A stretch of 64,000 nucleotides of DNA from positions 12,278,001 to 12,342,000 of the forward strand of contig OZ076409.1 in NCBI GenBank assembly GCA_964187785.1, read 5' to 3'. The number at the start of each line of letters is the position of its first letter. Within the stretch, counting starts at the first letter, position 1. The notes under the pieces are model-generated. The model worked only from the letters and a program-made list of their open reading frames with translations. It ran no database searches and had not been told where the DNA came from. Origin of the DNA: Amphiscolops sp. MND2022 (Eukaryota). Positions 17,295-58,593 of the stretch are shown here, in pieces. The position numbers and the translations under genes are program-made.

Positions 17295-17297
17295 CTA

Positions 17298-22639: not shown

Positions 22640-22655
22640 TAAAAACTATCCTAGA

Positions 22656-25413: not shown

Positions 25414-25665
25414 ATGACAGACCATTTGCGTAACCGCTTTGCAAATGTTGCTGAACGATTGACTCATAGCTTCACAGAATTAACATCCGAAAGTGGCCCA
25501 GTGCCGGACGGTCCGAATGACTATTTCCTGAGCGAACGCCATCCACAGTCTTCTACTGATTTCCCCAAATCGGAGGAAATCGAAGCAGATAACCGTCCCG
25601 TGATGACTTTCCGCGATAGATCATCCGAGTTCTCCTCGGCTGTTAAAAGTCTGCAAAGTCGTCAG
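25414..25665 (+). CDS. STX5: Syntaxin-5 exon 1
   Basis: MTDHLRNRF...MTFRDRSSEFSSAVKSLQSRQ|GT. Confidence 0.9.
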
Positions 25666-28600
25666 GTATTTTGACATTATTTTGAAGTCGCCTCATTGTG
25701 GTAGCATGTTTCTGATAAACGGCGCAATGGCCGCATCTTTACTGCATGCCAACTGGCTAAAATTCGTGTACCATTGAATGTGCAAAATATTTCATCACAT
25801 TTTTTCTGCTTTAAACAAGCATGAATGTTGAATAATTACTATTTCACGTCACTTAGGTGTGGAGTATCTGACGATAAAACTTTTTTTACTTCCAATTTTT
25901 TTACGATATTTTTATTTCTATAAAACATTCAAAGTTTAGATGTTGAATGGCACAACTCGGGGGAATGGAGCCGCTCGAACTATTCAGGAGCGAACACATT
26001 TCACCAAACTAGCGAAGTGAGTTGATATTTATGCGTAATGATTATTTTTCTTTTTCTGATAGGTACTAGAATACTTCTCTTCTCTAGAAAAGTGGGTAAA
26101 GACTTGGCAAGTACATGCGTCAAACTGGAGAAACTAACAATGTGTAAGTTGCTTTTGGGTTTAATCAATTTATTGCCAATTTGATTGGATCAATTTTCAG
26201 TTTTTGTGTTTTTCAGTGGCCAAGAGAAAAACCCTTTTCGACGACAAGCCTTTGGAAATTCAAGAGCTTACGTACATCATCAAACAGGTTAGTTATGAAA
26301 ACCACTATATAACTTTCGGACAACTTTCGTGTGATGAAATGCACTGGCAGTAAAGGCGCTTTTCTACTTTGATTGAAGTTTTTGGTTCCAGACTTGGGCT
26401 ATGTGCGTTGAATGAAACTAGTTCTCCTAAATTTCACTTGCAAAAGACTCGTATATGAGGACAAAAACGGTTACTGGATACTCTCGAAAGGAAAAATAGT
26501 TTAATGCAAACTTAAGTGCATCGCAGGAAAGACAATATGTTGAACAGATATGAGCGACAGATAACGAGTAATTTCTAAAAATGTTCCATTCGTCTGAAAG
26601 TTCAGAGAATGGGACTTTCTCCTCTTCTCTTTATCTATCCTCGCATTACTATGGACCGTGCCCATCGAAACCAGAAAGGGCAATGATTTAACCCTAATGA
26701 ACCTAGTAGTACTTTTTTGCAATTTCGGTTTCCTTTTGCCATCAGCCTATATTCTCTAGCACAGTTTTTTTTCAACAATTCATTGGTACCCATCTTGATT
26801 TGAATGGCACAAGCATTATAAAAGTGAATAATTCCAAAGCCGAGAAAAATGAGTTTTTTGCACAAAATATGGTTATATTGTTCCAAATTTCAGTTTTTGG
26901 CGAAATCCAGTTTTCTCAGAAGTCTTTGACCAATAGAAAAAAGCATACCATTCCACAAGTCCTTGTGCAACAAACCCCAATAATATCCTGTTGTTACTAC
27001 AAGCCCTCGTGCAGCTCACCTGACCAAAATTGAAGCCCAATACCAGACCTTTTCAACTACTTTAATTTAAAGAAAAGAAAATATTATCAAGAGATAAACT
27101 AAAGCGGATATTATTTTGAAATAATGCTATAATTATTTTATACCATTCTTTTGATCTTCGTATTTTGCTCTTCCTCGGCGTCATACCTGTAAAACAAATA
27201 CATAGATGAGGGTGGTGTCGATACGCTGCAAGGTATAGAGCCTCTCCTCACTGTCAGTTCTGAATGGATAAATTGCTAAACCTCGACAAATGGAGGGCAA
27301 ATTTATGGAATGAAACACCTAAATAAATGCTTGTCTGTAAATAGAGTATCGGAATTATATTGCTCATCAAAATAATGGGAGTTTGAGAGCCTCCCCTCTT
27401 CGACAATTGCGTTCATGGGCGACTCGGGCTATCTACTTTCTCTGATACACAAAATCGAACCGAACAGAATCTCTGAATTCCGATCTGGTGTGGGTGAAGT
27501 CATATTTCTGTAAGGAGAGCGCATTGAGCAAACTAGGAGCACGTTTTCCGGATGGCAGCTTCGTGGCGTATATATCGCTTCAGTTAATACTTCTTTCGGG
27601 TGTTCCATTTTCGTTGTTTTTGTTTTGTGAAGTCGCGCATGATTCGGTACTGGGAGTTTTCCGCGGCACTAGGAGTTCCATTTCTTTCAGACACTTGCTC
27701 AACGGTACCGATCGTGAGTAGTCTCCTGTGCGGTTATCGGGAGAGAAGATGTTGAGGTCGCCGTTCTTAAGATGGAGAAAAAGCAGTCGCTCCTGTTCGG
27801 GAAAATGCCCATTTTCCGAGATTGTCGTCTCTGCCTTGTAAGAATGGCACCAAGTTTGGGAACCAAAGTTTTTTTTACACCTTGTGTGAAAGTCGTATAC
27901 GTTGCGCGGAACCTTTCTCACGTGAATCACTAAACACCTAGCGGTGAAAGCAGTGGGGTATACGCGAATTTAAAAAATGAATTTTGTGATATAGAGTTTA
28001 TGATGATCGCGTAAGGAGTTATGGTTGAAATGCCAGTATAAACTTTCTGGATTATTACAAATACAACTTGTTAATGTATAAGTTTAACTCGATTTTCTAG
28101 AAGAGATTTTAGACACTATTTCGGGATGTTACGAAAGATATAACCAATTTCTTACGTTCTTTTCAAAGTTGATCCCATTTTAGAAATTATTAAGAACTGA
28201 CATTGCAGTAAAGAAGCGAAAGACCTAACCAATTTTTAGGAGTCGGAAAAAATTTTCGACTATTATGCAATCGTGCTGTTTTTTTTGTTTTTTTTTCTCC
28301 CGACCTTTTCATGAAAATTTCAAATTTCTCAAAAACTGTCCATACGATTTTCACGAAATTTTGCACAGTCATTCTACACCCAAAGGGGCCCCTGCGTGTG
28401 CAAAGGCATCAAAATCGTATGGCTTGGATGTGAGAAACATAGCCAAAATTAGCCCAAAAATGGCCAAAAAACAGCCATTTTTCGACTTTTTTCGATTTTC
28501 TCAAAAACTGTCCATAAGATTCGAACCAAATTTTCTACAGTTATTCTACACCATATTAGAGTCCTATATGTGCAATGGCATCAAAATCGTATGGCTGGGA

Positions 28601-31600
28601 TGTGAGAAACATAGCCAAAATTAGCCCAAAAATGGCCAAAAAACAGCCATTTTTCGACTTTTTTCGATTTTCTCAAAAACTGTCCATACGATTCGAACGA
28701 AATTTTCTACACTTATTCTACAGCATATTAGAGTCCTTTATGTGCAATGGCATCCAAATCGTATGGCTGGGATGTGAGAAACATAGCCAAAATTAGCCCA
28801 AAAATGTCCAAAAAAAGTCATTTTTCGATTTTTTTCGATTTTCTCAAAAACTGTCCATACGATTCGAACGAAATTTTCTACAGTCATTCTACACCATATT
28901 ATGGTCCTTTATGTGCAATTTCATTAAATTCGTATGGCTGGGATGTGAGAAACATAGCCAAATTTAGCTCAAAAATGGCCAAAAAAACAGTCATTTTTCG
29001 ATTTTCTCACAAAAACTGTTCATACGATTCGAACGAAAGCGAGTCAGAAGGAAAAAGACTTAAGCCGACTCCTTTACCGCATATGCGGCTCTGGTTTACA
29101 ATCTATTCAAAGTAGTTTCGAATCTATTCATTTTAGAAATAATGAAGAACTGACATTGCAGTGAAGAAGAAACAAGCAAAATAGCTTAAATTGAGGACAA
29201 TCATCATCCGTAACGTGAATAATACCATATATCAAAAAGTCAAAGAACAATATGATGTCCAGATGCAAAATCATTAATAAAATTAGAATGTTTCAAACAA
29301 GAAAAGTAATACGTCCTCAGCAAAAATGTTCAGTTTGATGGGCCGCAACTTGGCAGACCTTTTTATACATGGCAATAGTTGATTGCGGACATGATCTCAA
29401 GCTCATTCTAATGGCAGTTTTGTTCCCGTTAATCCTTCTTGGTAGCCTCGCCAGTGTTAGCATCAGGTACAGGGATAGCAGCGTTAGAATTGTTAGCAAC
29501 TCCGTTGGAAGTGTCAGATGCTCCTGTAGTAGTACCGGTCGCTGATGTTCGTGTGCCAGCGCTATTGTTAGATGATCCTGAAACGGTTCCCCTAGCGGTG
29601 GCCTGTTGGAAGGAAGTTCGTGCTGGTGATTGAGGCCGGGGAACAACATAACCAGCTTGGACTGTCCCGGGAGTATCGTGAACAACAGAGCGCTGATGTG
29701 CTTTGTATTGCAATTCTTTATAACTTTCTCGCTGCAAGATGGATGGTTGGATGACACCTATTGATAAAACATGAAACGGCGAGTTGTTGGACCCAATTGC
29801 AACAGCAGCTGTGGAAGGCTTCAGCCAACCATGAATTCGGAAACAGCCATTATCATTTATGAAGTTGACACATTTTATAACTGCATCCTCGAAGTCGAAC
29901 TCATCAAAAGTGTCAGTATCTGGGACGAGAGAGTTGTAACCGTCAGTGAAAACTGTAACGACTCGTTTTGATGTGAAATATACACTAAGGAAGCCGACAC
30001 GCTCTCCTTTCAGCTCATCACAAAAACCAATTCTAATGTGACACCTCAAGAATGTTTTTTCAAGTCCGTTTCTTTGCAGCCACATAAATCCTTCAATGTT
30101 TGACCGTCACAAAACTTACCGCTTTATTACTGAGACACGGTACAAACTGAAAGGATTTGAAGGGTTACCGTATTAAAGCAAAAATGTTGGAAATCTGCCA
30201 TTTTGGGAGAGTATTTTGGCAGAACTGCTGAACAATCTTCCAGGAATATAGGGACTACGGGCTCGGCAGTAGTCAATAGAGGATTGTCAGAGTCTTGCAG
30301 AAGTTTTTCGTCTCCGTGACGCGGAATCAGTAGTAGACATGTTGCACCTGGGTGTAGATTGGGCGAGAAACGTAACAATTGGCAAGTTTCGGCGTCGTTG
30401 GAAGTGAACATCCCGAAAACTCTGTCACTACCTGCCTCAGCAAAAAGCAAGAAACGATGAAAAGCTGCTTCCATAGTTTTTGCTTTCTCTCGTATGCGAT
30501 ACATTCTTACTGGTGTCGATGTCTTCTTCACGTGAAGAAGAATGCTTGGGAGCTTTGTCCTTTGAAATCCTTCTTTGGGACTAATAATATCTTCTAAGGT
30601 CACTCCTGAGAATCTGGAGCTCGCCAAATTCATGACACGTTCCAACGACAAATTTGCAGAAATCAGCGGCATTTTGTACAAATCTGAAGCTAAAGTAGAC
30701 GATCAGATACGATAATTGATGAAACTTGTTGAAGCAAATTCAAATAAAAATCGATGCAACCTTTATATTTTTTATTCAGTCATCAACAATGTTAAAAATT
30801 CGTTTTGAAGGCTATCAGAGGAAATGGTATCTATTATAAACAGTATGTTTACGATTCAGTAATTTATTGAATCTATTGTAAAACTTTATAAGATTTAAAT
30901 TTTGAAAGTAATGTATTGAATTCCGTGAGAGTACAATGAACTATGGAGCATAACTTATGGGCATCTTGAAAAGTGATAATGTATATGAAAAAAACTAAGG
31001 AAAAGAGGTTAACGAATCATTGAATTGCACATTATACTACAAACAACAACCAATTTGAGGTGAATATTGCAACGAAAGTGAAGTCTCATCAAAATAATTG
31101 GATCACAAAAATTACATATGATCGTTTCCGAGTAACAACATAAAAAAAGCTCAAAAAGTAGTTTGAAAGAATTTTATAAAGTAATCATTCCGCTATAACT
31201 TACATGACAACTAAAGAGTTGTTTGATGGGGCAGGAGAAAAAATATCAGTTTATGAAAATTGTTGCAGGCCGCTAGTTGCATGCCATAACGGAGACATAA
31301 ATTTTCCATATAACAGGATTCAACAGGCCGAGAAAATTCTCACACCAGTTAGCTAAGTACCTTGTACGAACCAGGTTAGTTTGTAGATCAAATAAATTGG
31401 CACATGTCGAATATGGTAGAGATAAATATAGCTGTTCTTTTGTTATTCATGGTCGATGTCTTCTTCACGTGAAGAAGAATGCTTGGGAGCTTTGTCCTTT
31501 GAAATCCTTCTTTGGGACTAATAATATCTTCTAAGGTCACTCCTGAGAATCTGGAGCGGCTGTTCGCAGCATGGGATATAAAGACAGGTAACTGAGGCTG

Positions 31601-34600
31601 AGATATCTCAGACCAGACTGTTGAAAGAGAAAATCAATTTAATACGGGAGCTCCTGTATCACGTTGTTCACCGGTCGCTCCCGCATCGAGAACTTTCAAC
31701 ATTTGTGATTTTTCCCACCACAACGATTCGCAGCATAAGTTCTTGATTATTAGGAAAAGCGTTTTGAATAGATTGGTGAGCAATATTGACAACGTCATCA
31801 GGGCTTGCAGATCTTCTGTTTGTCCTGACATAAAAGGCGACATCTGAGTGTATTTGTTGTTCTAATTGTCTGCGCTGTCGTTCGTTATTGGACATGTCGG
31901 CTGTATCGAATCCTGTAATGTAAGCAAATACACCCCAAGGACGTCGTTGAATTGGTTTTGTAAATAATGCTCCTTGCCCTGCATTATGTTCATACAAAGG
32001 TCGTGACAGACATTGTGTTTCTCCGACGTAAACCAATGATGGATAAGGACAACTAACAAGAATATACACATAGCCGAGCTTGGAAGTGGGTAGACATCGG
32101 AAAAAAGTTTGAAATGTAATGTTTCACAATGAATAAATTGGACACGAGTGGGGCCTGATTCTGACATCAACATTTTCAGGAAGCTGTCAATGTAAGAAGT
32201 TTGATGGGAAATTCGAGCAATTGCGAGCTTAATGGTAGCCATCACGTCATCTTTTGGACCAACGAATGTTATGTTACTCAGATTTGGTACACGACTCAGC
32301 AAGACAAGTAGTTGTTCTCGATGCCAAATGGATTAACTGCGGTCAGTCGGTGAGATTTTAGTCTGAATTGATGGTAGAGTACAACCTATTGCTTTGTGAA
32401 TTGTACTAGAAATATAATTTTTCAAAGGAAATTGAGTTCGTCTGATATGAAGATAGGAAATCACATTCCCAGTTCGTCTGTTATGACAACTGGTCTCCAG
32501 CCAAGTGGGTTCTGTTTTAGGCATTGGTATGTTGCGAACACCTGGTGGTGCAACCCTAACAGTAAAAGATGCAGCCGAAGGAATAGGTAAGTGTAATAAC
32601 ACCGCTAATGTTCCTTGTGCAACACCAATTGCCTTAATGTTCGCAGTGACACGCATAACTGCACCGGTGTATAATATTAGTTCTTCAGGTTCAAGACATT
32701 TGTAAGACAAGTGATCAGTAGCTTGTCGACTGGTTTGTTTCCAAACAGATGAACCACTTACACTTTCTTCGTCGCGTGCTGACATTTTTACGAAGGGAGT
32801 GTCTGTTAACGCAACTCCAACCAGGTGTCGATTGAGAGCAGCAGTCTCAGCGAATCTTGTACTGACGATCTTGATATCGGTGTTTGATATAGAGTCGTCC
32901 CAGTCATTACTGAAGGAGCAATTATCATTTATCAAGTCACATAAAGTATTTATATCGTCGCTGTCTATGTGGGTTTTGTCTAAAATCTCCAACAGTTGAC
33001 GTAGAGGCCCGGGACTTGTGCGGACATATTCAGCAAAATAAAAGAAATTGTAGTTTGTTAGCATTGAAGGATTTATTAATATTTCTGCTTTAGCAGGAAT
33101 ATTATTGAAATCTGGAAACGTCTACTTTTTTTCAGAACAATTTTTCGGACGATCTGAATAATTCAGATATTTTGTTCGGCAGTGAGTGTAAGCGACAGAG
33201 CTGTCGAAGACAATTCAATTCTAGTGCGATGGAACGAGCGAGTGGTAATTATCCATTCGTATGCTGACGTCATTGAGATGAAGCGAGCGAATGTTCGTAA
33301 TTGTGCTTTCGTTGCCCCGAGTTATTGAGATGAAGCGAATGAGTGTTAATTATTCGTTCGTTGAGAGCTTCGCCTGCATTCAAATGCGAATGCGAAACTT
33401 CGTCTACGCTTAGTAGTTATATTTTCTTTAGTCCGAGAAGAATTAAAGGCGGTGTAAACTTGTACAGTGATTAATTGTGCCGTAAGTAATGATTAAACAG
33501 AAGTGTATTGGTATTCCCGATATGATTCTTTTATTAATGATTTTTTTGTTTCAAAAAAAAGATTAAAGCAGAAATAGTACTGAGCCCCGGAGGGGCCTAT
33601 TTTCCAAACTGAAGTTCCTTCAGGAGGCGGTAGTTGATTGGGGTCACCGGATAGCAAACACAAAATGCCACCAAACGGAAGGTTGTTGCCCTTTACCCAC
33701 TGCATAACTTTGTCAAAGGCAGACCAAAGTTCAGCATTGAGCATGCCAAACTCGTCAAATAGAATTACATCCATCTGTTCCAAGAAAGATAAACGCTTTC
33801 TATTATTCAGCAATCCACTGATGGATTTTTCAAGAACGTTGACGTTGAGATTTTTCTATACAGGTAGACATGCCAAGTGATGCAAATGTTCTCCGAGCGA
33901 TTGTGCTCTTTCCCCATAAGTTAGAGCAACTAACAGAACACTTGTTTTTCCACTGCCGGGTCTTCCTATAACTAATTGGTGCCTAGTGAACATGTTAGAA
34001 CCTTGTGCAAAATTATCGATTTCATTTTGTACAACTTCCAGTGTTTGGACTTGTTTTTGATACGAGGTTGAGGTTTGTCCGGTTGTATGCAATACTACTG
34101 GTTGCCACGCAATCGGGTCAGTTTTGGAACAACAGACAAGATCTATCACACTGGGAAAGTTGTTTACTTTTCCAGTCTGGAGCTCAAGTGCGTTAAATTT
34201 TTCTTTTCAACAAGGTGTATTGCAACTTCTTCGCCTAAAACATCGACAATGTCTCGTTCCAGAACAGTTGGTGGATGATTTAGGTACAAGTCGTTGTCGA
34301 TCAGCAGACTTTTTAGTATCCTGTAAGCTGAGAGCAAGTACTTGTCGAACGACCTTGTTGCTCCGTGAAGAAACATAAGAACCTTCAACGCGTATTCTCT
34401 CGTGATGGCATTATCCTCGCTCAACGACACATTTGATGCGTTTCTAATTAGACCAGCGACCTGAAAGGACTGCTTCAATGATGACTGGGTGAACAAATCA
34501 TACTCTGTAGCGAAACGTCCCATTGTAAAAAGAATGTGGACACAAAATTTTAGAGGATTCAGTGGAAGAACATTTGATGTTACTATTTCAACAGTTTGTA

Positions 34601-37600
34601 CATTGTCTATGAGATGTTCATCGTTGACCCCGTGGTCAAGGTAGTTTTGAGCAATTTGCATGACTTTATTCAACTTGTGAATATCACTCACTGTTGATAA
34701 CCTTGCATTACAATACTTAACAAAGTCGTAAGCACATTGGCTTCTGAGGTAAACTGATCTGTTAAGACCGTCTATCCAACCATTGGTCGAAATACTTTTC
34801 TTAGAACTTCGGTAAAAAAAACCTGAAGTATTCGAGAGGCGAGTCTATTATAAGCAAATCCGGGGGGCGTATACCAAAAATTGAGAGTTTATCCGCGTGG
34901 AATTTGCTTGTCTTCAGATCCATAATGAGTAATTTTTGTGACGCAGTAAAATCACCATGTAAAACGTTCATGTTACATATTGGATTTGAAACAAAACCAG
35001 GCCCTTCCTTCTCATTTCGTTGTACGATTCCACCTCTGCTGTGTCGTGGCAAAGTGGAACATCTAACAAATTCCTTTGAACAATATACGTGTGGATAATT
35101 GAGTACGAACCAAATGGACTCCGTTAGACAAATGGTTTGTGCTTCAACGTGTTTTTGTTGTCGCTTTTTCGAATTCTTCAGCGCAGCCTTGACTCCACTT
35201 ATTTTTTTGGTAAGGATTCGCTGAACGTTAACGGCTAAGGAGTCATCTGTGTTTGCAGACACTATCTTCGAAGTTGCACGTTCTTCGATACCAGCCGCAT
35301 ATTTGGCAATGTACCTCGCACAAAGATATCTGTCGCTAACTTGCACATTCATGCTAGACTTTGTCAAACGGAACAGGCTGATGTTCATGGGGGAAAGGTG
35401 CTCACCCATGTCAGCGGGGTAGAGAAATTTGCCATCCACCCTTCAAACTTTTGCAGACTTCAAAATCGTCATCAACGCCTATTCTGGGGAATGCCAAATC
35501 AAGTTGTTGCATTAGACGCAATGCTTCTGAACTATGGGGAGCACGAATTGGCATATAGGAGTACACATGCGATGCTGGGTATATTGGAACGCGATAGATG
35601 GGACTACCGTCGTCTTTGGTTTTCTTATGACATCTGAAGATAGCTTTAGAACAATCATGTGATTGTATAGCCATGGCCAGTTTGAAAATCCGATCTTGTT
35701 CGATCTGTGATAACGGCTTGGAAAACGCTTTAAGTTGACAAATTTCATTGTGTATGGCTTTTCCTGAACAAACAATTCGGCGTTGAACTGTGAAATCATG
35801 GTTATCTTCATCTGTCCAAATAACAGCATGAATATGAGGCAAATTACCAGTCGTTGTTTGAAATTCATAGCGATACCACATTTGAGTGACTTGGCCGAGC
35901 GGTTGCTCAGGCGATTTCTCAGTATATCGCATCAGTGCTTTTGAAGCCCGTTCCCAAGCTCTGGTTAAGATCACCATTTCTGCTTTAACGGCCGCTTGCC
36001 ATCTTTCTCGTGTCGGGATTTCAATGCTTTAAATATGGGAGCAACTCCGAAATGTTCATCCAGGTTACACGTGTGGGTTGTAAAATAATTTGGTGAATTA
36101 TTTGCAATCATTGCCGACCACTGATTCACACTTTTTCGAAAGTCGGCTTCGTCAAACTTCAGTACTGATTCCCCGGCAGTTTTACATTTGTTTTTCTTTG
36201 GGATTTCTTCTAGACCACGATCCACGATGAGAGAAGAATGGGCGTTTGCCAAATAGTAATTGTAGACAATATCGAACAACCATTGAATGTAACTTTCGTC
36301 AGTTGAGCACAGCAAGGAAACATTTTCAAACGAGTCATCATGTGATCCACCACAGTTGCGAAACCGAACTTTTTATTTTGATCATCTGAGAACAGACTAC
36401 TACAAAGAGAACCAGGGTAGTTACCGTCTTCCTCGCTTTTGTAGAATATTGTTGAAAATAGCATTGCATCGGGGTAAAGAAGAGGTACACTATTTCCTTT
36501 AGAGGTTGCTACAATGTTTTGAAGCATTCGGCGACTGTGATCATTGCCTGTAATAGGCTGACGATTCCGGCGCAGAAGATGGCAATCCGTATTAAGTAAC
36601 AGATGAGACGGTATTGACTTGTCGGACACATTAATATCGTAAATGGGCATTGGACCAGAATCAGTGATATCAACATTCGAAGGAAGATCCTCGTCTTCAA
36701 GAACAGCTCGCGGAAATTGCTCCAATGCGTCATTTTCAACATAAAAATCCCAAATATCTTCTTCGTCGGTGTCTGTATGTTCTGAAGTTGCCTCAAGTTT
36801 GTTAAATTCAGGTAAGTTCAACTCTTCAAAAATTTCCTTGTCAAATCCATCATCGAGTACAGTATTTTCTTCAACTTCGGATTGAATATCATTATTACGA
36901 ACTTGAGACAGTGCTTCGTTGTCATCTTGCTGAGTCGGTTGTTCAAACATTGAAAAATCATTTTGAATAGGATCTTGTTTAATTTTAAAGGTCTCACAAT
37001 TGGACAGCGATACTGTGTCAAAATGTTTTTTGCAAATGCTCACTGCACAATCATCGTTAGCACATCTAAACTTTCCAACTCGTTTGCAGTTTCTCCCAGA
37101 ACATTTAAAATTAGTTTTTCGTGGGTTTTTAGTGAGAAAGGAATTGTGTTTATCACCGACAATTGTGCTTTGTCCGCCCAAAAACTGCAAGTACTCGGCT
37201 CGACAACTCCAATATGATTAATTTGTGATATTAACGTACATGCAGAAATTCCAACGTTGGTGTGCTTCAAAAAAATCATTGTCGAAATCTTGACGAAATG
37301 GCCTCTTATTGTTGTAGTCGTATTTCCACGAACCCCATTTTTTCTTTCCGTGCCGTGTGTGAATGGAGAGAGATGATTCACTAAAAAAGGTTAACATACG
37401 AAGTTCTAACTTGGCGTCACCAACAACAATTTCAGTAGGAAGTAATTCAGCTGATACTTCACTTCGACTGATGCATTTGAAAACAACAGCTGGAACAATC
37501 TGTTGAAAGCCTTGCACATCATTCCTTGACAGAACGTCGACTATTGGTACTTGTGGAGTACATGAAACTAACAATTTTGTGACTTTCTCCACAAGATAAG

Positions 37601-40600
37601 CATCATGGAATGTTCCAAGGAAATGTGTAAGAAAAACCTCAGATTTGGTCCTTTGAGACGGTCTGATCGTTGGATTGTGATTGAAACAGCTACTAGCAAG
37701 TTTTGAGACGTGCTCACATAATGCGGTATCAGAAGCTGCATTTTCGTTGACTAAAGAACAATATTCGGGATTGAGGACCATGTTACATAATAAAAACCAC
37801 AATAAAGGCTCGATGTTTGTGGGAACGCTTGGGGGTTGACATCCGAAATCAGTATTTATTTGAGCAAAAAAAGCTTGATAAAATTTATTGTTAGCGTTGT
37901 TTTCTGCTTGACGTTTCATTCCCATAGCTATATTGAAAGGTACATTGGTAGCGGAATTCAGTGCTTGTTGAACCACGGCATCACTAGGACAAGGGTTAGA
38001 CACAATGGTGTTTTTAATTGATTCCTTTATCTCTCCAGTTGCGACTAAATCATCCAATAATTGTGCAACGTCAGATCTGTTTTTAGCAGTGAGACCTTCA
38101 GCACTAGGCATGGTGTCTTCTGCATGCACATCCCATTTCCTCTTGAGACCTTTTCGCTGAGAACTAGCTCCAGCATAACCCACGTCCTCTGCCACGATGC
38201 AGTATGTGTGAACAGAGTATTTCGCTTTCATAGGGTGTGCAACTTTAGACTGAATAACAGCGGGCGCAAGTCTATTAGAATATTTGAGAGGAAATGAGCC
38301 AGTAGCGGGATTTGTAGGAGGATGGACGTATTGGAGTTGAGACCCTTTGTTGTGGTCGGAACAAGTTACAATTAAAGGGCCGTGTTGGCTGCTAAGGTAA
38401 ATGAAAGGTTTTATTATGAAACAATTGTGTTCTTCTTCGTCTAACCAATCAGACCGAGCTCCATTTAGATGTTTCCTGTAATCTGCATTAAAAAATGTAA
38501 ACGAAGGAAAAAGATTATTAAGAAAATGTTGAAGTGAAATGTAACCAATATATTCTTTGTCCTTGAACGTGGTACATCCGAAGGGACATCTAACATCAGG
38601 AAAAGCAGTTTTATTACAGGATTCTTCAATTTCATCCATAATATTCATCTTTTTAACTTCTTATAAATGATCAACTTTAGCGGTAACATCAGCAAATTGA
38701 AAATGTGGTAAATTGGAAACGGCCGCGTATCGTAAAAAATGCTGCCAAAAAGTCTGTAACGACGGTGGTAATATGTACCAAAAATGTTTCCCACGTGTTG
38801 GTATTTCAACAGACACTAAACAAGTTAACAAAGCCGATGGCCAGCCGTATTCCCATCTGTCTGATGCAGTATCCCGGCGCAAATATGTATAACATAAGTC
38901 ACAAACGAGAACACTGACTCGTTTCAACTTTCGCACCAAGTCTTCTTTTAAGTATGGAGTTAACAGACACCTCTTGCAACGGACCACAATTAAGACGACG
39001 ACATTTACAACATTCTTCTTGATTTAACGGAATCTGATCTAATTGACTGAGGTCAGGAAATAATGATATTACACTACTGCTGGGAATGACTGTAACAATT
39101 GAACTTACTGTTGGTGATTCCACTGAGGCCGAGATCATTTCGTTCTCAGACCGTTGAATACTCACTTGTTGGGTGGTGTTGCAGTTGTTACATTCAGAGA
39201 GACTTTTAGCAAACATACCACAATTTAGGCATTTACTTACAGATCGTCTCTTTCGAGGAGGCATTTTGCAAATGACAAAAATCTGAAAGATAATAAAACC
39301 TTGTGAATGTAGTCAAATGAAATATCAAAAAGCCCATATGTTAAACGGTCCTAAGTAGACGAAGAAATCAATCAGAAAAATATTTTAAAGTTACCTATTT
39401 TTAAGAAAAGTTCATAAATTACGTAATTTACGTTTGCCATTGAGTAACACTTTTTGCAATGCGTTTCATTTAGATCTAAATTATTGTGAAAGTATTTTGA
39501 ATGTCGCATAATTTTAACAAAAGTTCATCAAAAAAATCTTCGTTAACCATTCTATAATTGTTGCAAAAGTGCTTGAATATCGTAATCTAAGTAAACCATT
39601 ATGAATCACTGTTTGAGATGAATTTCAAGTAGTATAAAAAGGCTGAAGAACTGGATCAGTTAATCAAAAGTTTTATAGAGTAGATAAACAGTTTTCAATT
39701 GACGAACTCAAAACTAATAAAATTCAACTCATCATCAGTATTTGAAACAATAAAACACAAGTCACAATGCGTAAAATAACTAACAATTGAGAGTTTAAAA
39801 GAAATGGATTCAATAGGTGATGACAAACCAGAAATCAAAATTCAAAGTTGCATAAAACAAGTGAACGCAACAACACCAAAACTATTGATTGTAATTCAAT
39901 TTTTCAAGATACTTTCGCTTTGACGGGCTATTTTTTCCGGCAATTCTTCGTTTTCCAGGGCCTTTCGTGAGTTCCATTAAACTCTCTCATTGTTGCAAAA
40001 TCTCGAAGCATTTAATTTCCAGGTTTTTGTTAGGATGCGCAACTGTAGTGTCGAAACATTTATACTCTGGCGGCAGATATCGTTTCATGTCCAGGTAAAT
40101 TATTCCTGGCGGAGAGACATCCGGGAGGCAGGAACCCAAATCAATTACAGAGTCATTCCTGCGGAAAAACAGGAAGGCAACAACTCCATAGGCTCTACAT
40201 TCGTCAAGCAAGTCTTTCAATCCTTTTTTTGTCAGTGCCGAACTCTCTTTGAAATTTGATAACGAATTGTTTATGGCATCGTGCCAAATGATGATAGGTC
40301 GGTTATTCTTAAAATCAGCGTTCTTTAGGGCGTACATCAAATTTTTGTTGGGATGTCCTGCAACATTACTGGTAAATGCCATCCCGGGTTCAGATTTAAT
40401 TTGCTTCAATTCGTCTTTTGTAACGCCCAAACTGTGCTTTATCCCGTCAAGCGAACTGGCACCAATAACATTGAATTTCAACATAGCGACTTGAAATAAA
40501 AGACAGATCATTTGGACTACGTACATGAAATCGCCTAACAAACCAGTTAAAGTATTGAACATTCGAAAAAACAAGCACGTACGTGAAAAAAAAAAACGAA

Positions 40601-43600
40601 AATAACTTAGTACGTAACTATCAATCCAAATCAGTAATTTAAAAAACTTTCCGGACAAATGAGGCCGAGTATAACTCATGCCGTAAAATGTTGTAAAATT
40701 CTTGAAAATTTAAAGCCGATTTAACGTACGTTGGAATCCTACTAAATATGTATATCAAAACTAAGGCCGAGCATAGCTCATGCCAAATAAAGAAGCAAAA
40801 ATTTAAAAGATCGAGGCCGAGTATTACTCATGCCAATTGAAATTAAAAATTATTTGCAGACCATAAAACGTTCACGTAATAAATTTCAATTTAAAACATT
40901 TAATTTAAAGAAAAGAAAATATTATCAAGAGATAAACTAAAGCGGATAATATTTTAAAATAATGCTATAATTATTTTATACCATTCTTTTGATCTTCGTA
41001 TTTTGCTCTTCCTCGGCGTCATACCTGTAAAACAAATACATAGATGAGGGTGGTGTCGATACGCTGCAAGATATAGAGCCTCCCCTCACTGTCAGTTCTG
41101 AATGGATAAATTGCTAAACTTCGACAAATGGAGGGCAAATTTATGGGATGAAACACCTAAATAAATGCTTGTCTGTAAATAGAGTATCGGAATTATATTG
41201 CTCATCAAAATAATGGGAGTTTGAGAGCCTCCCCTCTTCGACAATTGCGTTCATGGGCGACTCGAGATCTACTTTCTCTGATACACAAAATCGAACCGAA
41301 CAGAATCTCTGAATTCCGATCTGGTGTGGGTGAAGTCATATTTCTGTAAGGAGAGCGCATTGAGCAAACTAGGAGCACGTTTTCCGGATGACAGCTTCGT
41401 GGCGTATATATCGCTTCAGTTAATACTTCTTTCGGGTGTTCCATTTTCGTTGTTTTTGTTTTGTGAAATCGCGCATGATTCGGTACTGGGAGTTTTCCGC
41501 GGCACTAGGAGTTCCATTTCTTTCAGACATTTGCTCAACGGTACCGATCGTGAGTAGTCTCCTGTAAGGTTATCGGGAGAGAAGATGTTGAGGTCGCCGT
41601 TCTTAAGATGGAGAAAAAGCAGTCGCTCCTGTTCGGGAAAATGCCCATTTTCCGAGATTGTCGTCTCTGTCTCGTAAGAATGGCACCAAGTTTGGGAACC
41701 AAAGTTTTTTTACACTTTGTGTGAAAGTCGTATACGTTGTGCGGAACCTTTCTGACGTGAATGACTAAAGACCAAGAACTGTGCTAGTGAACAATCTGAA
41801 TATTATTCGGGACGAATAGAGGAGTATTAACTTTTTCGAGAAAATCTTTCTTGACAATAAGATTGCATGTTCGTTTGAAGCCAAAAGCAACCGTTTTTAG
41901 TCGGCGCATTTTAGTAAAAAATGAGCCCGACTATTACCGTGTCTAGTTTTTTTTTCGTCAGATAACAGAATGTCTGCGTAGTGGAATTTTTTTACAGAAG
42001 TACTGGATCGACAAGCGGAAACCGAAGTTATTTGCGTTTTACTGAAGAGGAGGCGTAGGATCGAAAAAAGCGCTAGCGTTTGTTTCACGGTTCGCTATAT
42101 CCCAACTTCTGAAGCGTATTCCGAGCACGAAAGGTACCCTTACGGGTTTCGAAATTGAGACATTCATTTAAAAAATGCCCTGAGCATATCCTAAAATCTT
42201 GGCGCTTTAGGTTCCTAAGGCGTTGCCGCCGATAGCGTACTAATTTGTCGTTTTTGACGTAATTGTTCAGTTTTTGGCGTTCCTGGAGTTGTTCCCTTTG
42301 AGAAACTATGACTCTCTCATTGACGAATAATAACGAGAACGATTTATTGGAGTTTCTGATCGCGTTGATTTGTGATTGTTTGGAATCGTTCCGATGTTCT
42401 GGAGCGCAGGTTTTTACTAGTTAGACTTGAATGTGTTTTTGGTATCGAGTAGAAGCATTGCTTCCGCTTGGGACGATTAAAAGAAATTTCGTAACGTGAA
42501 TAGCATGTCTAATACCCCATTTCTGTCCGATTGATCCTGGAGTTTTACGCACTTCAATTGGTCTGACACAGTTGGTTCTTGTCGATGGGTATTAAACGGC
42601 TGGCGTTATAGACAACCAATTCTTCTGTCTCGAAGTCACTTGTAGCTACGATAGAAGCTAACATGTCCAATGTTTCGCCGAGCTCAGCGGAAGACTCTGA
42701 AATTTGACAAAATCCGATGCCACTCATTGAACCATGGCGTACTCCTGGATGAACCGTCCAGTTAGTCAAAAATCCCGAGATATATTGCAATGTGTCTTCG
42801 TACTGATTTGAGACTGCGTGATTCTCAGAAGGTTCTGACTGTGCCGGGTGCTTGTCGGCGAGTATCTGGTACACAGCTCATGTTTTGATTCGATCGTCCA
42901 GGGCCAATACTTGTGTTTTTTGTGTTTTGCCGAGACATGGTAAAGCGTTTCAAATTTCACTAGCTGTCATAAAAGCTGGAAGAAAAACCATGTTGAAAAT
43001 GTCGATGTGTACTCTTCGGTGTCTTGATTTCGTTGGCCTGAAACCCCCAGTTGTCGTGGTTTTCCTCCAGTTAACCGCTTTACCATAGTACAGTAGTCTG
43101 TCATGAATGATTGGCATGTGTTAGAAAGACGTTGCCGTATGTTTGCTATATCATTTTTGAGCAAACAAAGTTAATTTTGATGGGATTGGCTATCGTTTAG
43201 GTCGAAAGTTAAAGCAATGCGAGAAAGTTTCTTCTCTTCGTTTTCAAATAAAGGAAGAAATTTGTTCTATGTTTTATGTTGAGCCTCAGACTTTTGACGT
43301 TATATCCGAACTATATTGAGTTTTAGTAAAGAGGAGGCGGATGTTCGAAGCAGGAGTTTTCCTTGAAAACATCATACGCATATTTTAAAAACTGCTTTTT
43401 GAGCCCTAGATATAGCGCCGACTTTAGACGTTCCCGTCTTGTTTAATTTTTCCTCGACTTCACCCTGAATAGAAGATTGTGAATAGATTTTTTATGTGCC
43501 CTGTCAATCACAGGTGAGCAAGGAGGTGCTGTGTTGTCAATAGTAATTTGTTGCAGGATCTGAATTCTCTGAATCAACAGATAGCGCAATTGGGAGAAAT

Positions 43601-46600
43601 CAACAGGAGTAGAAGTTCCACCAATTCAACGAACAACCACATCCAGAGTCATGCATCCACTGTGGTAGCCGCGCTCCAAACTAGATTAGCCAATTTATCC
43701 ACAGATTTCAAGTCAGCCCTCGATATCCGTACAGAGGTAACTAAAGCGCATTATAGCACAACACTTATTTGATTGATACAGCGCTCAAAGCACTAATCAG
43801 AAAAGCTGGCTTCGTAATTTTTTTTTCAATTTGCGGATTTTCGCAATAAGTAGGTTGTCTACATCAATCAATTGTCAATTTCATGCTTTGTCGTTTGCAG
43901 AGTTTTGAGACCGCTAATCGGCGAATTAGCGGCCGCGCAGAATTTTTTCAGCGATCTATTGGCGATTCAAATTAGCGGCAACACCAAAATTTCCTCGGAG
44001 TTTCAAGTTGAATTTCAAAAAATACCACTTCATCTGTAAAACCCACATTGTATGAAAAATTCCCATCTTTCAATTTTAAAACATCCTTGAAGTCAAGCAT
44101 TTGATAATTTGAAAAAAGTTCTTCAGCGAAATAGCGATTTTGAAATTTTAGCGGTTCATCGATTAGCGAAAAAAAATTAGCGATGTCAAAACTCAGGGTG
44201 TTTGGCTCCGAAAGAATATGAAGTTTGTATTTAGAATTTGAAAGCTTCCAAAACAAGAAAGGACAATTTCTCCCAATCCAATCCCAGTTCGAACAGTAGT
44301 GCCTCCGGTGGCATTGGCGACCGAAGCGTCCTTTTCAGAGACGAACAACTTGCAATTCAACAACGGAACAGTCCCACTTCATCTGCAATAAACATTCCCG
44401 CAGGTAACTCAATCGTCTTGTTCGAAAGTTGGATGACATTTTAAACAGCATTGTTTTTAGTCGGCGCTTTTCGTAGAAAAACGCAAACTATAGTAGTGAC
44501 TTTTCTTTTTTTTAAGACCAACGAAGTGACAGATTTTATAAGCTGGGTTCCGCTAACTGCCACACTAATGTAGCTTCTGCTTCTGATTTTTTGAGGTCTG
44601 CCAAGCAGAAGGACGTGGGTTCGAGTTCCGCCCTTGACCAAAAATTTTTTTGTGCATTGTATCTCGGCGTTGAGAATTTTTCGCAATTTTTTTTAATGGC
44701 TCTAAAGGGTCCCCCTTCATTTTTTTCTACTTTGCAAAAGAATGAATGTTCAAAAACTCCCAAAGGGACCCCTTTCACATTTTTCGGCACTATGCGACTT
44801 ACCGGAGACCAAAAAAATCGGAATTTTCAATTTTTTCCTCATACGGGTACTGTAGAAGAGAAAACTTGACACTTTGAAGTCCTTTTGCTATTTTTGAGCC
44901 TTAGATATGGCGCCGACTTGGTCCGTTCCCGGCTTGTTTTCTTCTTTGTTGCACTTTTTTAGGAAACTAAATTGAGGTTATAAGCATCAGTCGTAAATTC
45001 ACAATCACATCAGTACTAGAGTTTTCAGTTTTGTTTCGTGACCATTTGTGACTACCAAATGTTTTTTTGCTTGAATTTTCTTGATTTTTCCAAATTCCTG
45101 GAAACTTAATTCCTGGAAAGATGTTTCTGCATCATTCAATGCTTCTTGGCTCGGAGAAATGTTTTAGAGCTTTCATAAATCATGAAAGTGAACTGTGTTA
45201 GAAAAAAAATTAACCAGACTTATCTGTCATCTATGTCAAAACAAGTGGTATTTGGTTTTCAACAATTAGTGACGAGGCGTCCAATTGTTACGTCATTCAA
45301 CGCTGACGTGTGGTCAAAATATGCTTTAAAGCGTATTTAACCAACCAGTGCCAAAGTCATGAAGTACTTATCGAAGAGTAGCAGACAACTTTGAGCTGTT
45401 AGCTGAAGATGAGAAAACATTTGAAGGCTTCACAGAACAAGATTTCCATTCTTCTTTTGAAGTGTTAAAAGTTCAAATTAAAAATGAGTAGTTTGAGTAA
45501 AGAACTCGTTGATGATTAGTGTCGTTGAGTTTTGACACAGTTTCTGAAATTTCGCGTACGTACTTTAAAAGCTGGAGGCGTCCTTGTGAACTATGGGCAC
45601 GTAAAATGTTTCTGAGGATTCCGACCCATGGTTGGTTGAAAAACGTTCTAAAGTATTTTTATATGTTTTAAAACAGTTTACGAACTGAAAACGCAATTCA
45701 CTTCATTATCACAAAAACTATTCGGAAAATGAAGATGAATTCAGCAAGCGCATACAAAAGCGCCAGTTTACGGACTTTCTCAGGTTTCAGTCTATTTCGA
45801 ATTTCAGAATGTACGTGACCCATGGATGGAAAAACCCCTCTCGAGACCAGCTTGGGACGGTGTGAAAGGTCTGCGAAAATGAAAAGAAACAATAGCTGTT
45901 TTGAAACACCCCTGGAAAATGGAAGTTTTAAAACTTTTGAAGCACCCTGTTTTAAACATGCCAACTCTGTTCGGACCTGCTATTTCAGTATCTGTATTAT
46001 CAGATGAAATTATACTATTTTTGGAAGTGAAACGTCTCCATCAAACTATGAAATTGCATTGCAATAAGAAGAAACTTCATTTTTTAGTCGGCGCTTTTCC
46101 TTAAAAGAGCCGACTATAGTCATGGTTTTTCGTCAGTGTTTTTTTTAAACCACCTGAAGTGACCAAAATAGTTCTACCGAAAGTTCTACAAAATTTCAAA
46201 TTTCACCTGTTGGCCCAGGGAACTAAACCAAACGGTTTTTCTTTTTTTTCCGCGTAACATTACCGGGCGAGACTAAAGGGTCCCCCTTTCAATTTTTTTC
46301 GAGTGTTGCGACAAAATGGATGTTGAAAAATCCCAAAGGGTCCTCCCTTTCAGTTTTTTTTCGACATTGTGAGACTCATTTTTTTCATGAAAGGGTCCCC
46401 AATTCACCAATACTTTGACATTTTTAAGTCCTTTTGCTATTTTTGAGCCTTAGATATGGCGCCGACTTGGGCCGGTCCCTTGTTGAAATTTTCATGGAAC
46501 TCAAGGATATGTTCCCACTCGTGGTGAATCGAGATGAGCATAATACGTTTGAGAAAACTTACCTCCGAAAGTCCTCCACTGGACCACCAAACTATTGGAA

Positions 46601-53115: not shown

Positions 53116-53541
53116 AACGAGACGGGAATGTCCAAAGTCGGCGCCATATCTCAAGCTCAAAAAGCGCAAATTTGAAATATGCGTAGGACGTTTTCATGAA
53201 AAACTCCTGTTATCAGACCGTTTATATCCGGATATTACGAGCGCGGACTTCAATAAAATCGAAGGGGGACCCTTTGAAAACAAAAAAATTAAAATTTTCG
53301 AAAAAAAGTCTCACAGCGCCGAAAAAATTGAAAGGGGGACCCTTTAGTCTCATCTGGTTTTCTATGTTACGTTTAAAAAGTAAAAACTGAAAGAGGGGAC
53401 CCTTTGCGATAGCTTAGATGCGTTTCCCAGGTATTCGTTTAGTTGAACAAACTGAACAAAAATTTCGTCGCTTCGAGTCTGTCTTAAATAAACGAGTGAC
53501 TGTTATAGTCGGGCTCTTTTAATAATAAAAGCGCCGACTAA
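53116..53541 (-). mobile_element. HINE-like element (family A)
   Basis: AACGAGACGGGAATGTCCAAAGTCGGCGCCATATC...GCGCCGACTAA. Confidence 0.75.
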
Positions 53542-54738
53542 CAACAAAAGTGGGTTTTAATGAAGCAAGACTCGGAACCTCATTCTACAGCTTAAATCAT
53601 CATTTTTAAGCAAACGTTGATTTAGTCTTCAGTTCCAAAAAAGCTCGAACAAATGAGAATCATTTTCCTCAAAACTTTATCTTGAAACTTTGATTTGATT
53701 TGAGTATCAGAACTTTATCGGCATACCATTTTTAAGTGCCATTTGCGATTTTGGGTTTTATTCAATGGTCCAAAAATGAAAGCTACCTTAGAACCAATTA
53801 GGTATTCTGAGAAGTCTTCAAAATGTGTTGTAACTTGTAACAACCATGTTAAAGAGTTAAGATGCTAATACTCAATTATGCTCGATAATGTATCAAACGT
53901 TAGCTGATCATCGTTATTATTACAGACCTGTGGTTAAAAAAATTGAACCCCTGTTTGGTAATGAAGTTTGGGAAGCCTAATGATTTTGGGTTTTTTGAAA
54001 AGTGTCAATTTCGTCAAAATATCATGATAGAACCAAAAGTTTCTTCAATTTTCGTCTAGTTTGCATTACTCTAATTTGGAAGTTTTGTCACCAGTATGAG
54101 ACAAGTTTGCAAATAAAAGTTTTCACATGAAATGTATTAGAAATCCTGTTGCAGAAATTAAAAAAGAAGCTAGTCATCACTTATAATGAGCTTGAACAGG
54201 TTAGCAGGTACTTAGCTGTTGGGCATTTCTAAAGTTTTACTCACAAATACAGTTTTCATTAGTTTATATTCATGATAAGTTGAACTTAATTTTTTTGACT
54301 TGATTTTGAACTGCTCGGCTTTGTATGATTGAAAATTTCCAGTGATCGATTTTCACTGGCGCCATTTTCAAACTTAAAACAACTTTCGTTAGTCCAAAAA
54401 CTGCCGCTTCCTTTCATCGCATTGTTATGACGCAAAATAATATAGATCTCAGCCTTATAGCGGTCATCGGACAATCGACTGACTGTTTTCAAAAATCTTT
54501 ATCGTAACTATTCAGTAATTACAATAGTATATCTCAGGAAACTTTTCCCGGTCACTAAGCTTAGTGTGATAATCATCATTAAAAAAGTTGTTTTTGAAAA
54601 TATAAATGATTCGAAAAAATAAATTTAAAAGCATTTTAGTGTTTCAAAACACATAATTATCTAATTTAATTTCTTCAAAAAGAAAACAGCACTTTTGGTT
54701 CATACAAGAAAAACATAGCAAAGTTGAATGAAAGTTTT

Positions 54739-56508: not shown

Positions 56509-58280
56509 ACTAATCAGAAGTTTATAACTATAGCAATGTCCAATCGAATAGTCATTGAAACTGGCTAATTTCTGGCTGGCATAAACGTAACAGTAGATGA
56601 GTTGTGATCGTAAGAGCGAAAAAACATAATCGTATTTAAAAGCTAACTAAGTTTTCGAGTATGCTCGACTCTGGTTTCGGGCCGCGTGTTCATAATGTGA
56701 ACAAAAAGTGACCAAAGAAAACGTGCGGCCAGATGCTCATTCATGCGACCAGACTGTCATTTTTCAATCGTCCATCTAATTTTACACAAGTTTCTCAGTT
56801 TTTGCAGTTATGTGAACAAAACTTCAGTCATAAATTTATTGGACTTGGCGACAATAATTACTACACGTGTATACGTCATCGTCAATTATTTTTTGCAGCC
56901 AATTTGTAACTACCAAAAACAAAAAGCAAACACAGAACCGCGTTTTAAAACGGTTCAAGTGCTTCGATTTGGTTGAACGCGAGATTAATGATTTGAAAAT
57001 TGGATAATCGCTGACATCCGAACCAACATTTGGTTGTAACAGTGGAACGCTTTTAAGAATTTTGTGTTTTTTGCTATGTTTATGCTAGGTTGTTTATGTA
57101 ATTGCACAACATAGGTTCGATTGAGATGTAAGAGAATTTGATAAGAAATAAGAATGGTTTTCATTTCAATGAAGACCAGGTATTTTGGTCTGAGGTTTAA
57201 TCATCAGTCATCTGCTATGACTTACAATGCAGTTTTATGTACAGGGAAAGAGGAAGCCAGCTAAAGCAGAAGCAGTTTCGTCGTTTCTTTGTTCCTGCAT
57301 TTCTAAGATGCAATTCGAACGATGCCAAAACTGTTGTGCAAACACATGAGATTTTTTCCTAAAGCGCCTAATTACAAATTTATACGCCATGTGTCTTTTT
57401 TTCTGTCTCTTACGGAGACATCAATATTTGACATGTGTATTTCATCTTCTGTAATCACCAAGACCATTTCCAACGTCTGCTTTGGAACGATTAAACGTTA
57501 TTGATGTCCTGTGCTCGAATATTCATACAACTGCTCTAGCTAGTGCTTTTGAAAAACCAGGCAAAGTTGATTGCCAAAGAAAAACAAAGGAAAATATGCA
57601 TGATTCATGAGTAGGAAAGTTCAAAGTTGGAGCATTTTTCTTGATAATCTGAGAGATCAAGGAAACAGTTTGTCACGTTGTTAATTTATGATTTCTTTTG
57701 GTGTCTCAAATTTGACCAAATTTGGAACAGGAAAGATTGGTTTGTTTTCAAAAAAAATTGAAACGATTTTTAGTCAAACTAAAGAAAGGCTAAAATCAAA
57801 AATTGTCAATTTTTCAAACACATCACCACATTTGCAATAACTTGCATCGAATTTTTTAGAATTTGCTAACAAGTACTGTGCCCTTTTATCGAAATTTCAA
57901 TCCCTACAGATTTCATGAAGTTATGGAAAATTCTTGATGGTCCAATTGCTACAAATTTAGGAAGTTTTCGCGAAATCCGTGACGCAAAAAAAAAACGAAA
58001 AAAGCCATATCGAGGATACTCTAGTGGTTTTATTTGATTTTAAGATGGCCCGTTTTACTTATTCTTGATTTTTGTACAAACGTTTGGAATTTAACAACTG
58101 TTCCCAAAACTTTGTTCATTGGATTTTTTTTCGGAAATCCTGAACTCTACAAAACGTTATCGAATACAATGTTGATAACTTCTATAAGTGTTGAAACTTT
58201 TTCATAGAAACTGTAAAAAAAACTTGAATGTCAACTCTGTGAAACGTTATTCTTGGCATTACAGCAGTAGTTCAGGATAT

Positions 58281-58593
58281 ACAAGCCGGGAACGGCCCAA
58301 GTCGGCCCCATCTCTAAGGCTCGAAATTAGGAGAAGGACTTCAAAGAGCCAAAAAACGTTATATCCGAACTTGAAAACGTTATATCCGAACTTTGAAAAC
58401 GTTATATCAGAACTTTGAAAACGTTATATCCGAACTTTGAAAACATTACATGCGATCTTTGAAACGTTATATCCGATTTTTAAAAACGTCTGAACAAATG
58501 TACAGAAAAGTAGACATTCAGAGTGAACAGAAAAAAACTAATCACTGTAATAGTCGGGCGTTTTTCCTTAAGAGAAAAGGATCAGACTAAAAA
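58281..58593 (-). mobile_element. HINE-like element (family A) with 21-22-bp tandem repeat AAAACGTTATATCCGAACTT(T)G; duplicate at 61469-61765
   Basis: ACAAGCCGGGAACGGCCCAAGTCGGC end, central minisatellite and GACTAAAAA end. Confidence 0.75.

Follow-up and report, generated by a model that had tools for sequence, protein, structure and literature searches.

Three small bulged hairpins beside a direct repeat of a broken Helitron-like element in Amphiscolops sp.: possible single-strand recognition sites

The stretch analysed here comprises 64,000 nucleotides of contig OZ076409.1 from Amphiscolops sp. MND2022 (GCA_964187785.1, positions 12,278,001 to 12,342,000), hereafter the window. It contains a broken 14.7-kb Helitron-like element (27061-41776). 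On the minus strand, the element runs from one direct repeat through an AT-rich leader with hairpins, an SGNH-like open reading frame (ORF), a broken RepHel transposase gene, a third ORF, and a 172-bp tandem array to a second direct repeat (Table 1). Three copies of a 21-nt hairpin in the leader are the subject of this report. They were first pointed out in a sequence-only reading of the window, which proposed them as a Rep binding or nicking origin or as an RNA leader element.

All three 21-mers were confirmed at the positions in Table 1, with the letters given in the sequence-only reading. The whole window was searched with the pattern AGGCCGAG-N5-CTCATGCC, allowing up to three mismatches. 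Exactly these three copies were returned against 0.10 matches expected, and none of 100 shuffles reached three; a window-wide fuzzy search (up to four edits) found no further convincing or degenerate copy. The copies differ at 1-3 of 21 positions (86-95% identity), and the differences are confined to the central five bases. Copy starts are spaced 102 and 50 nt apart (approximately 50-51 nt or double). The spacers, described earlier as AT-rich and unrelated, have 20-26% GC, and the 29-nt flanks resemble one another no more than shuffled sequences do (no significant likeness in six of six pairs, p 0.47-0.93). The motifs do lie just inside the direct repeat, as had been stated: the triplet spans 64-237 nt from the repeat junction, copy 3 being nearest. 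The score of the possible fourth copy was reached by 279 of 5000 shuffled spacers (43 of 5000 when the register was also required) and in 176 of 1574 real 81-nt windows. The triplet is real and has probably been kept by selection.

Table 1. Positions in the window of the hairpins, the genes and repeats of the element, and a neighbouring host exon.
Feature	Positions	Strand	Remarks
Hairpin copy 1	40662..40682	-	Nearest the gene; retained in sister family P0010; SGNH-like ATG 177 nt downstream
Hairpin copy 2	40764..40784	-	Bears the compensatory change of the loop-closing pair
Hairpin copy 3	40814..40834	-	Loop altered at one base; direct-repeat junction 64 nt away
Possible decayed fourth copy	40713..40732	-	Weak; 51-nt register
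NANTATTAC match inside copy 3	40819..40827	+	Judged chance
AT-rich leader	40485..40898	-	Between direct repeat and first gene; hairpins and eight ACGT cores
SGNH/GDSL-like gene	39987..40484	-	165 codons to stop; predicted fold matches SGNH hydrolases, best E 0.0036, high match probability
Broken RepHel transposase gene	31668..39264	-	HUH and Y2 motifs, Pif1 helicase, GIY-YIG at the C-terminus; frame broken in several places
Third, broken ORF	29429..30651	-	No Pfam family at cut-off; no usable Atlas match
172-bp tandem array	28282..29038		About four copies, within the element
Right direct-repeat copy	40899..41776		Outer end CAAG where the left copy has CTAG
Left direct-repeat copy	27061..27941		97.4% identical; unit length 13,838 nt
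Candidate subterminal inverted repeat, left arm	26752..26766		14/15 matches to right arm
Candidate subterminal inverted repeat, right arm	41777..41791		Abuts the right direct-repeat copy
Host exon, Syntaxin-5 N-terminal motif	25603..25665	+	PF11416, E 1e-5, above cut-off

The stem had been drawn as GAGY pairing with RCTC. That core stands, but the drawing was too short: GGC and GCC close the stem, which has eight pairs on the minus strand. There, the predicted fold of every copy consists of a 3-bp GC lower stem, a bulged A, an upper stem of 5 bp that includes a T/U-G pair, and a triloop. The plus strand has a 1x2 internal loop at the same site, and its loops are ATA, ATA, and ATT in copies 1, 2, and 3. 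RNA folding gave -8.4, -10.1, and -8.4 kcal/mol for the minus (sense) strand (z about -2.1) and -5.4, -7.1, and -5.4 kcal/mol for the plus strand, an advantage of 3 kcal/mol per copy for the minus strand. All eight pairs are intact in all three copies; seven are invariant and one is altered on both sides. The T-A to C-G double change that led the copies to be called covarying is present in copy 2 and keeps the pairing, but it concerns a single pair, and 171 of 500 column shuffles equalled its score. When any of the 21 positions was allowed to vary, random substitutions kept all pairs and gave a compensatory change in 0.6-0.9% of trials; with variation restricted to the central five positions, the proportion was 3-4%. 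The control set consisted of 25 viral stretches matching the outer 15 bases by chance, from which five duplicates were removed, and a Watson-Crick closing pair was present in 4 of the 20 distinct stretches. The compensatory change is only suggestive; we rate the hairpin structure as likely, though it rests on few pairing events. Hammerhead, selenocysteine insertion sequence (SECIS), K-turn, histone stem-loop, and iron-responsive element (IRE) were rejected as identities, their core motifs being absent from the hairpins. An Rfam 15 scan of 39500-42500 gave a single match at E <=5, which lies elsewhere and scores below gathering.

Conservation across element copies had been suggested as a check, and it was assessed at the protein level in one family and for one hairpin (copy 1). 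P0010 is a predicted protein whose frame runs across the leader in a related copy of the element, and its SGNH part is 80% identical to that in the window. Over copy 1, 12 of 12 residues match the window frame, compared with 9 of 22 and a three-residue gap in the upstream spacer. By the codon table, the P0010 peptide fixes 10 of the 21 bases of copy 1, including the bulged A. At 80% background identity, 12 codons would all stay unchanged by chance with a probability of 0.002, and at 75% with one of 0.0005. The distance from hairpin to ATG is approximately 95 nt in the P0010 family, as judged from peptide length, versus 177 nt here. Unlike copy 1, the region of the decayed unit is poorly kept in the sister family. 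Among SGNH-family proteins P0005-P0010 and P0170-P0220, only P0009 and P0010 read across a hairpin, and P0009 is the same sequence as the SGNH ORF of the window. P0005-P0008 imply that there are at least four subfamilies linked to SGNH.

The exact motif had no match in the viral contigs searched, and the two-copy pattern had none in the metagenome contigs searched. A looser one-copy pattern gave the 25 viral stretches used as a control; all are single copies in DNA of 46-71% GC, and we treated them as chance matches. Protein-guided locus searches confirmed 0 of 18, 0 of 46, and 0 of 25 candidates in viral contigs, 1 of 79 in the metagenome (L001), and 1 of 49 in genome contigs (L002, 2.5 kb around the Rep motif). 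No such hairpin was seen by eye in L001, where only about 280 nt lie upstream of the ORF. L002:1344-1922 encodes a Rep of the RepHel-GIY-YIG branch that is 39% identical; the 2.5-kb contig belongs to a bacterial metagenome-assembled genome (MAG) and is likely a eukaryotic fragment binned into it.

An HUH/Y2 Rep fused to a Pif1 helicase is the defining feature of Helitron-like elements, and the window has this fusion in broken form. The element is one that works like a Helitron, with its defining RepHel. The RepHel pieces match Helitron_like_N (PF14214, E 8.6e-5, below cut-off), PIF1 (PF05970, E 4e-10), and GIY-YIG (E 3.9e-5), and they are collinear with long intact relatives of 2,268-2,811 residues. 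Thirteen long RepHel relatives were scanned at E <=0.001: PIF1 was detected in 12, Helitron_like_N in nine, and GIY-YIG in nine, while DUF6570 and AP-endonuclease were detected in none of the 13 and in none of 17 window pieces. The GIY-YIG piece has weak matches to structures of UPF0213 (E 0.0016) and SLX1 (E 0.0033). One N-terminal RepHel piece matches 321 cluster representatives (E <=0.001). A repeat family of about 430 bp occurs at 33071-33496, 46629-47092, and 58766-59218, and its first copy interrupts the helicase part of RepHel. An exact 106-bp duplication (30515-30620 and 31452-31557) lies in the 3' part of the element, and a direct repeat of about 24 nt at ~28193 and 29146 flanks the 172-bp array (28193-29169), as though a long duplication had accompanied insertion of the array.

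The first ORF resembles SGNH/GDSL hydrolases. Its S, G, N, and H blocks are visible in alignment, and its 10 best Atlas family matches are all in the GDSL family or clan. The predicted model has a predicted local distance difference test (pLDDT) score of 88, and the top Foldseek rows are SGNH hydrolases, none at E <=0.001; the ORF has no Pfam match. A 20-residue stretch with 9-11 Lys/Arg is found near the C-terminus in six of the nine SGNH relatives examined, and the frame beyond the stop of the window ORF matches the Lys/Arg-rich tail of relatives. The SGNH relative P0008 and the RepHel fragments P0160 and P0181 come from 614,715-nt contigs, which suggests linkage of the SGNH and RepHel genes in a further copy of the element. 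A second member of the SGNH-like family lies at 7161-7568 (minus strand), upstream of a non-long-terminal-repeat (non-LTR) retrotransposon-like ORF pair (6827-3123), and no such hairpin was found upstream of it.

Bounding by LTR-like 881-bp direct repeats is unusual for a Helitron-like element. The two copies differ by 15 transitions, 8 transversions, and 3 gap columns, and CTAG occurs three times in the 881 nt. No hairpin of -4 kcal/mol or better was found just before the CTAG/CAAG outer end of the repeat. Two readings of the ends remain. In one, the repeat arose by copying past the unit end round a circle, and 40898/40899 is the candidate element end. In the other, the repeat is a short element inserted twice, and the candidate inverted repeat marks the ends, which places the hairpins about 80-250 nt from it; this inverted repeat was found after the fact, and its score was reached by 15 of 1000 shuffles. 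Both ends are candidates, and the hairpins are subterminal under either reading.

Helitron-like elements of type 1 (HLE1), such as Helraiser, are similar to the element described here in encoding a RepHel with HUH, Y2, and Pif1 parts and in having a hairpin with an AT-rich triloop near one end, and read-through to new CTAG-like ends is known for them (PMC4778049). The end features of HLE1 (5'-TC, 3'-CTRR with a hairpin 10-12 nt upstream, and insertion between A and T) are absent at the candidate ends in the window, and the GIY-YIG fusion and the SGNH-like gene also set the element apart from Helraiser. Helraiser was not among the 22 matches at E <=1 in a PDB sequence search with the intact relative P0022. 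HLE2 elements (Helitron2/Helentron, HINE/DINE-1, FoHeli) have terminal hairpins, short subterminal inverted repeats, T-rich ends, and sometimes reversed ORFs (PMC11417382, PMC4067079, PMC5148889). The inverted repeats of HLE2 are 11-18 nt and are accompanied by a terminal stem-loop and insertion between T and T; a possible counterpart here is the candidate 14/15 inverted repeat. Unlike HLE2, the 13 RepHel relatives have no DUF6570 or AP-endonuclease match, and neither a directly repeated triplet of bulged hairpins nor 881-bp terminal direct repeats are described in the available text of these three sources. PMC11417382 reports a GIY-YIG domain once, in a Sphagnum HLE2 family. Fish Helitrons carry an SGNH gene (texim, PMC4021074), and Paramecium Helitrons form a further clade (PMC13085455). 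A literature search judged by titles and abstract openings, with most subscription journals and Repbase outside its range, found no description of a repeated bulged-hairpin array for Helitron-like elements and no paper joining Helitron, SLX1, and GIY-YIG.

In the bacterial repetitive extragenic palindrome (REP)/TnpA-REP and IS200/IS605 systems, an HUH enzyme that cuts at a distance reads a single strand of imperfect hairpins, which are repeated and share a conserved bulge; the REP transposase requires the bulge and reads a single strand only (PMC8266576). These systems differ from the present element in having Y1 transposases without helicase, the window hairpins have no GTAG guide motif, and binding here is putative. 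Our favoured interpretation, which we hold tentatively, is that the hairpins are strand-specific recognition or pausing sites in single-stranded DNA (ssDNA) for the transposase of the element, located near one end, and are not the nick site itself. The element would be peeled off as a single strand, and each hairpin would fold into a small imperfect stem-loop whose fixed asymmetry would allow only one strand to be read. The RepHel(-GIY-YIG) transposase may then bind or pause at the hairpins near one unit end, aiding loading or stopping, and the nick would fall at the unit end, outside the hairpin. Copying that ran past this end, round a circular intermediate, and stopped at the next CTAG-like site would have left the 881-bp terminal direct repeat behind. 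Helraiser read-through creates new CTAG-like ends, and its terminator is an ATT-loop hairpin that depends less on its stem than on its loop and closing pair (PMC4778049); the plus-strand loops of the window hairpins are, in comparison, ATA, ATA, and ATT. Since the outer end of the repeat lies on CTAG/CAAG, we liken it to the new ends of Helraiser. In some Helitron-like elements the ORFs are reversed relative to the ends (PMC5148889, PMC4067079). Recognition of the hairpins is favoured by spacers that are unrelated while the cores are alike and by the retention of copy 1 in the sister family, both of which argue for selection on the motif. It is also favoured by the eight pairs intact in every copy, by the position of the triplet near the repeat junction or the candidate inverted repeat, and by the HINE/DINE-like repeats of the window, which also keep about three triloop motifs 55-70 nt apart.

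Several results weigh against recognition by the transposase. As DNA, the hairpins fold only weakly, at -3.6 to -4.7 kcal/mol with z from -1.15 to -2.64, and no better on one strand than on the other, and the lone compensatory pair is not significant on column shuffles. The 12-codon run in the sister family has a probability of 0.057 at 90% background identity, and with 19 of 25 residues retained in the leader directly before the ATG, the background is uncertain. The cleavage determinants of Helraiser lie within 40 nt of each end, with a single 19-bp palindrome 11 nt from CTAG (PMC4778049), whereas the nearest hairpin here is 64 nt from the junction and there are three short bulged copies. There is no TC at 27061 or 40899, the flanks are not A and T, and a search of the opposite end of the element gave no matching hairpin. 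The eight ACGT cores round the hairpins point to a promoter.

Ssn nucleases are GIY-YIG enzymes that read an oriented ssDNA hairpin (NTS/SRM) (PMC11893778). By analogy, the GIY-YIG nuclease fused to the transposase could read the triplet as its cognate ssDNA site, a candidate Ssn-like role that we consider improbable. Ssn nucleases are single-domain bacterial proteins with palindromes of at least 6 bp, and their hairpin sequences show no likeness to those described here (PMC11893778); the GIY-YIG here is the C-terminal part of a RepHel protein of 2,200-2,800 residues. If true, a hairpin-guided second nuclease would stop or cut rolling-circle products to unit length, with the 881-bp repeat recording one missed cut, and a large, little-described branch of the rolling-circle transposons of eukaryotes would thereby process its ends in a new way.

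The sequence-only reading offered Rep binding and an RNA leader as roles of a cis-element in an HUH-Rep element. A conserved, structured cis-element holds, and both roles are kept, the first as putative, because the hairpins adjoin the element boundary and precede the first gene. As an RNA leader, the hairpins would act in the sense transcript, bound by the Lys/Arg-rich tail of the SGNH protein or by another RNA-binding protein, in control of translation or splicing or in the building of a ribonucleoprotein. The U-G pair and single bulged A, which favour the sense strand in three of three RNA folds, resemble phage coat-protein operators, and a U-G pair can serve as intermediate in the change from U-A to C-G. 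The gene downstream is SGNH-like, and six of nine relatives have the basic C-terminal stretch. Transposon esterases have been proposed to bind structured RNA through arginine-rich peptides, a speculation of the authors of the ZfL2-1 structure (PMC3905857). However, four of the eight ACGT cores are downstream of the hairpins, so transcription may start beyond them. Acceptor-like sites just before the ATG may also place the hairpins in an intron or outron, the hairpins match no Rfam family, and packaging of its own RNA is needless for a DNA transposon. We regard an RNA role as unlikely. Splice-acceptor-like sites occur 7-25 nt before the ATGs of all three ORFs (~40490, 39285, and 30660, minus strand), and several distant SGNH relatives translate as 'FQ' directly before the start; at the sequence level, these features suggest 5' introns or trans-splicing.

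Baculovirus homologous regions (hrs) consist of 2-8 units of about 70 bp, each with an imperfect palindrome and with CRE/TRE motifs between them, and serve as origin and enhancer (PMC13513840). Similarly, the window hairpins could be imperfect palindromes in duplex DNA, forming a promoter, enhancer, or origin module bound by a dimeric factor among ACGT (bZIP-type) sites. ACGT cores are located in the leader at 40519, 40577, 40581, 40612, 40724, 40728, 40868, and 40874. Eight in 414 nt is the maximum of the window (mean 1.46 per 414 nt); it was reached in 2 of 636 overlapping windows and in none of 2000 dinucleotide shuffles. The regular spacing of the copies also fits such a module. Upstream of the RepHel ATG, at a distance of about 150 nt, there is also a perfect 16-bp ACGT-centred palindrome (~39410-39425), a possible promoter site. 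The hrs share with the leader several spaced imperfect palindromes with bZIP-type motifs between them, beside genes, but they belong to an unrelated sequence and replicon, their palindromes are about 30 bp with conserved units (PMC13513840), and no IE1-like protein was identified here. Duplex binding needs neither a compensatory change nor a wobble and bulge on one side, and no factor with such a site was identified. Template switching in a quasi-palindrome can make a compensatory change in one step. A duplex module seems to us distinctly unlikely.

Helentron-type elements often have central tandem repeats (PMC4067079), and the element in the window has its own 172-bp array. The hairpins could be functionless cores of a decayed 51-bp minisatellite, alike through recent duplication or conversion. 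A register of 51/51/50, in which the possible fourth unit has decayed, fits this explanation, but the cores are 86-95% identical while the spacers have no likeness, and the sister family keeps copy 1 and not the region of the decayed unit. A neutral remnant is very improbable.

Origins of CRESS-DNA viruses (viruses with circular, Rep-encoding genomes of single-stranded DNA) join a stem-loop, a nonamer, and nearby iterons in the intergenic region of an HUH-Rep replicon (PMC9872696). The hairpins resemble this arrangement in having a stem-loop, repeats, and a nonamer-like word, the NANTATTAC match, which is intergenic and beside the unit junction. The sequence-only reading had noted a nonamer in copy 3 and cautioned that the match could be chance. 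Copy 3 does carry GAGTATTAC, and the caution was well placed: one of three copies has the nonamer, the predicted stem pairs six of its nine bases, and the loop is a triloop only. NANTATTAC occurs nine times in the window and in 635 of 5000 shuffles of the 414-nt leader (13% by chance), while the strict forms TAATATTAC and TAGTATTAC do not occur in the 64 kb. CRESS nonamers stand exposed in the loop of a long stem. The match is most likely chance. The Rep is of Helitron type, matching Helitron_like_N; a REP_ORF2-G2P match was weak and below cut-off, and Rep scans gave no match to circo- or geminivirus Rep families. The Helitron transposase that has been tested (Helraiser) cuts at TC and CTAG ends without a nonamer (PMC4778049). 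About 70 nt separate the unit junction from the would-be nick site, the unit is 13.8 kb with no capsid gene identified, and at 2.6% repeat divergence we estimate that about 1 of 63 hairpin bases would have changed since insertion. Nicking by Rep at the copy-3 nonamer, with copies 1 and 2 as iterons, is thus scarcely credible.

The window is eukaryotic, with retrotransposon-like ORFs and an intron-containing gene with a Syntaxin-5 motif. The element lies between exon-like frames at 26219-26287 and 43560-43736; these have no Pfam or useful PDB match, and we assign them provisionally, from their likeness, to the syntaxin-5 gene. If they are part of the same syntaxin-5-like gene, the element lies in an intron on the opposite strand. 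Apparently non-coding HINE/DINE-like repeats are present at 44454-44941, 46081-46490, 53116-53545, 59507-59930, 62379-62800, and 41894-43446, the last of which bears cargo with a weak THAP match (E 0.034). The family has short subterminal inverted repeats and about three internal GC-rich triloop motifs centred on GGGGACCC, 55-70 nt apart. A Gypsy-like LTR retrotransposon with long ORFs is located at 7983-23366, and its 712-bp LTRs are 99.7% identical. At 57219-63147, stretches of 1.7 kb and 1.1 kb have undergone recent segmental duplication (95-97% identity), and a 21-22-bp minisatellite is also found there.

The RepHel-GIY-YIG branch is widespread, as the 321 cluster representatives show, yet it is little described. 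The triplet beside the unit junction provides a concrete 21-nt substrate for asking which protein (Rep, GIY-YIG, or the basic-tailed SGNH) recognizes it, and in which nucleic-acid form. If the answer is RNA, the hairpins would be the first cognate target for the basic tail of a transposon esterase. If the answer is DNA, as we tentatively favour, they would show how the RepHel-GIY-YIG branch defines its ends.

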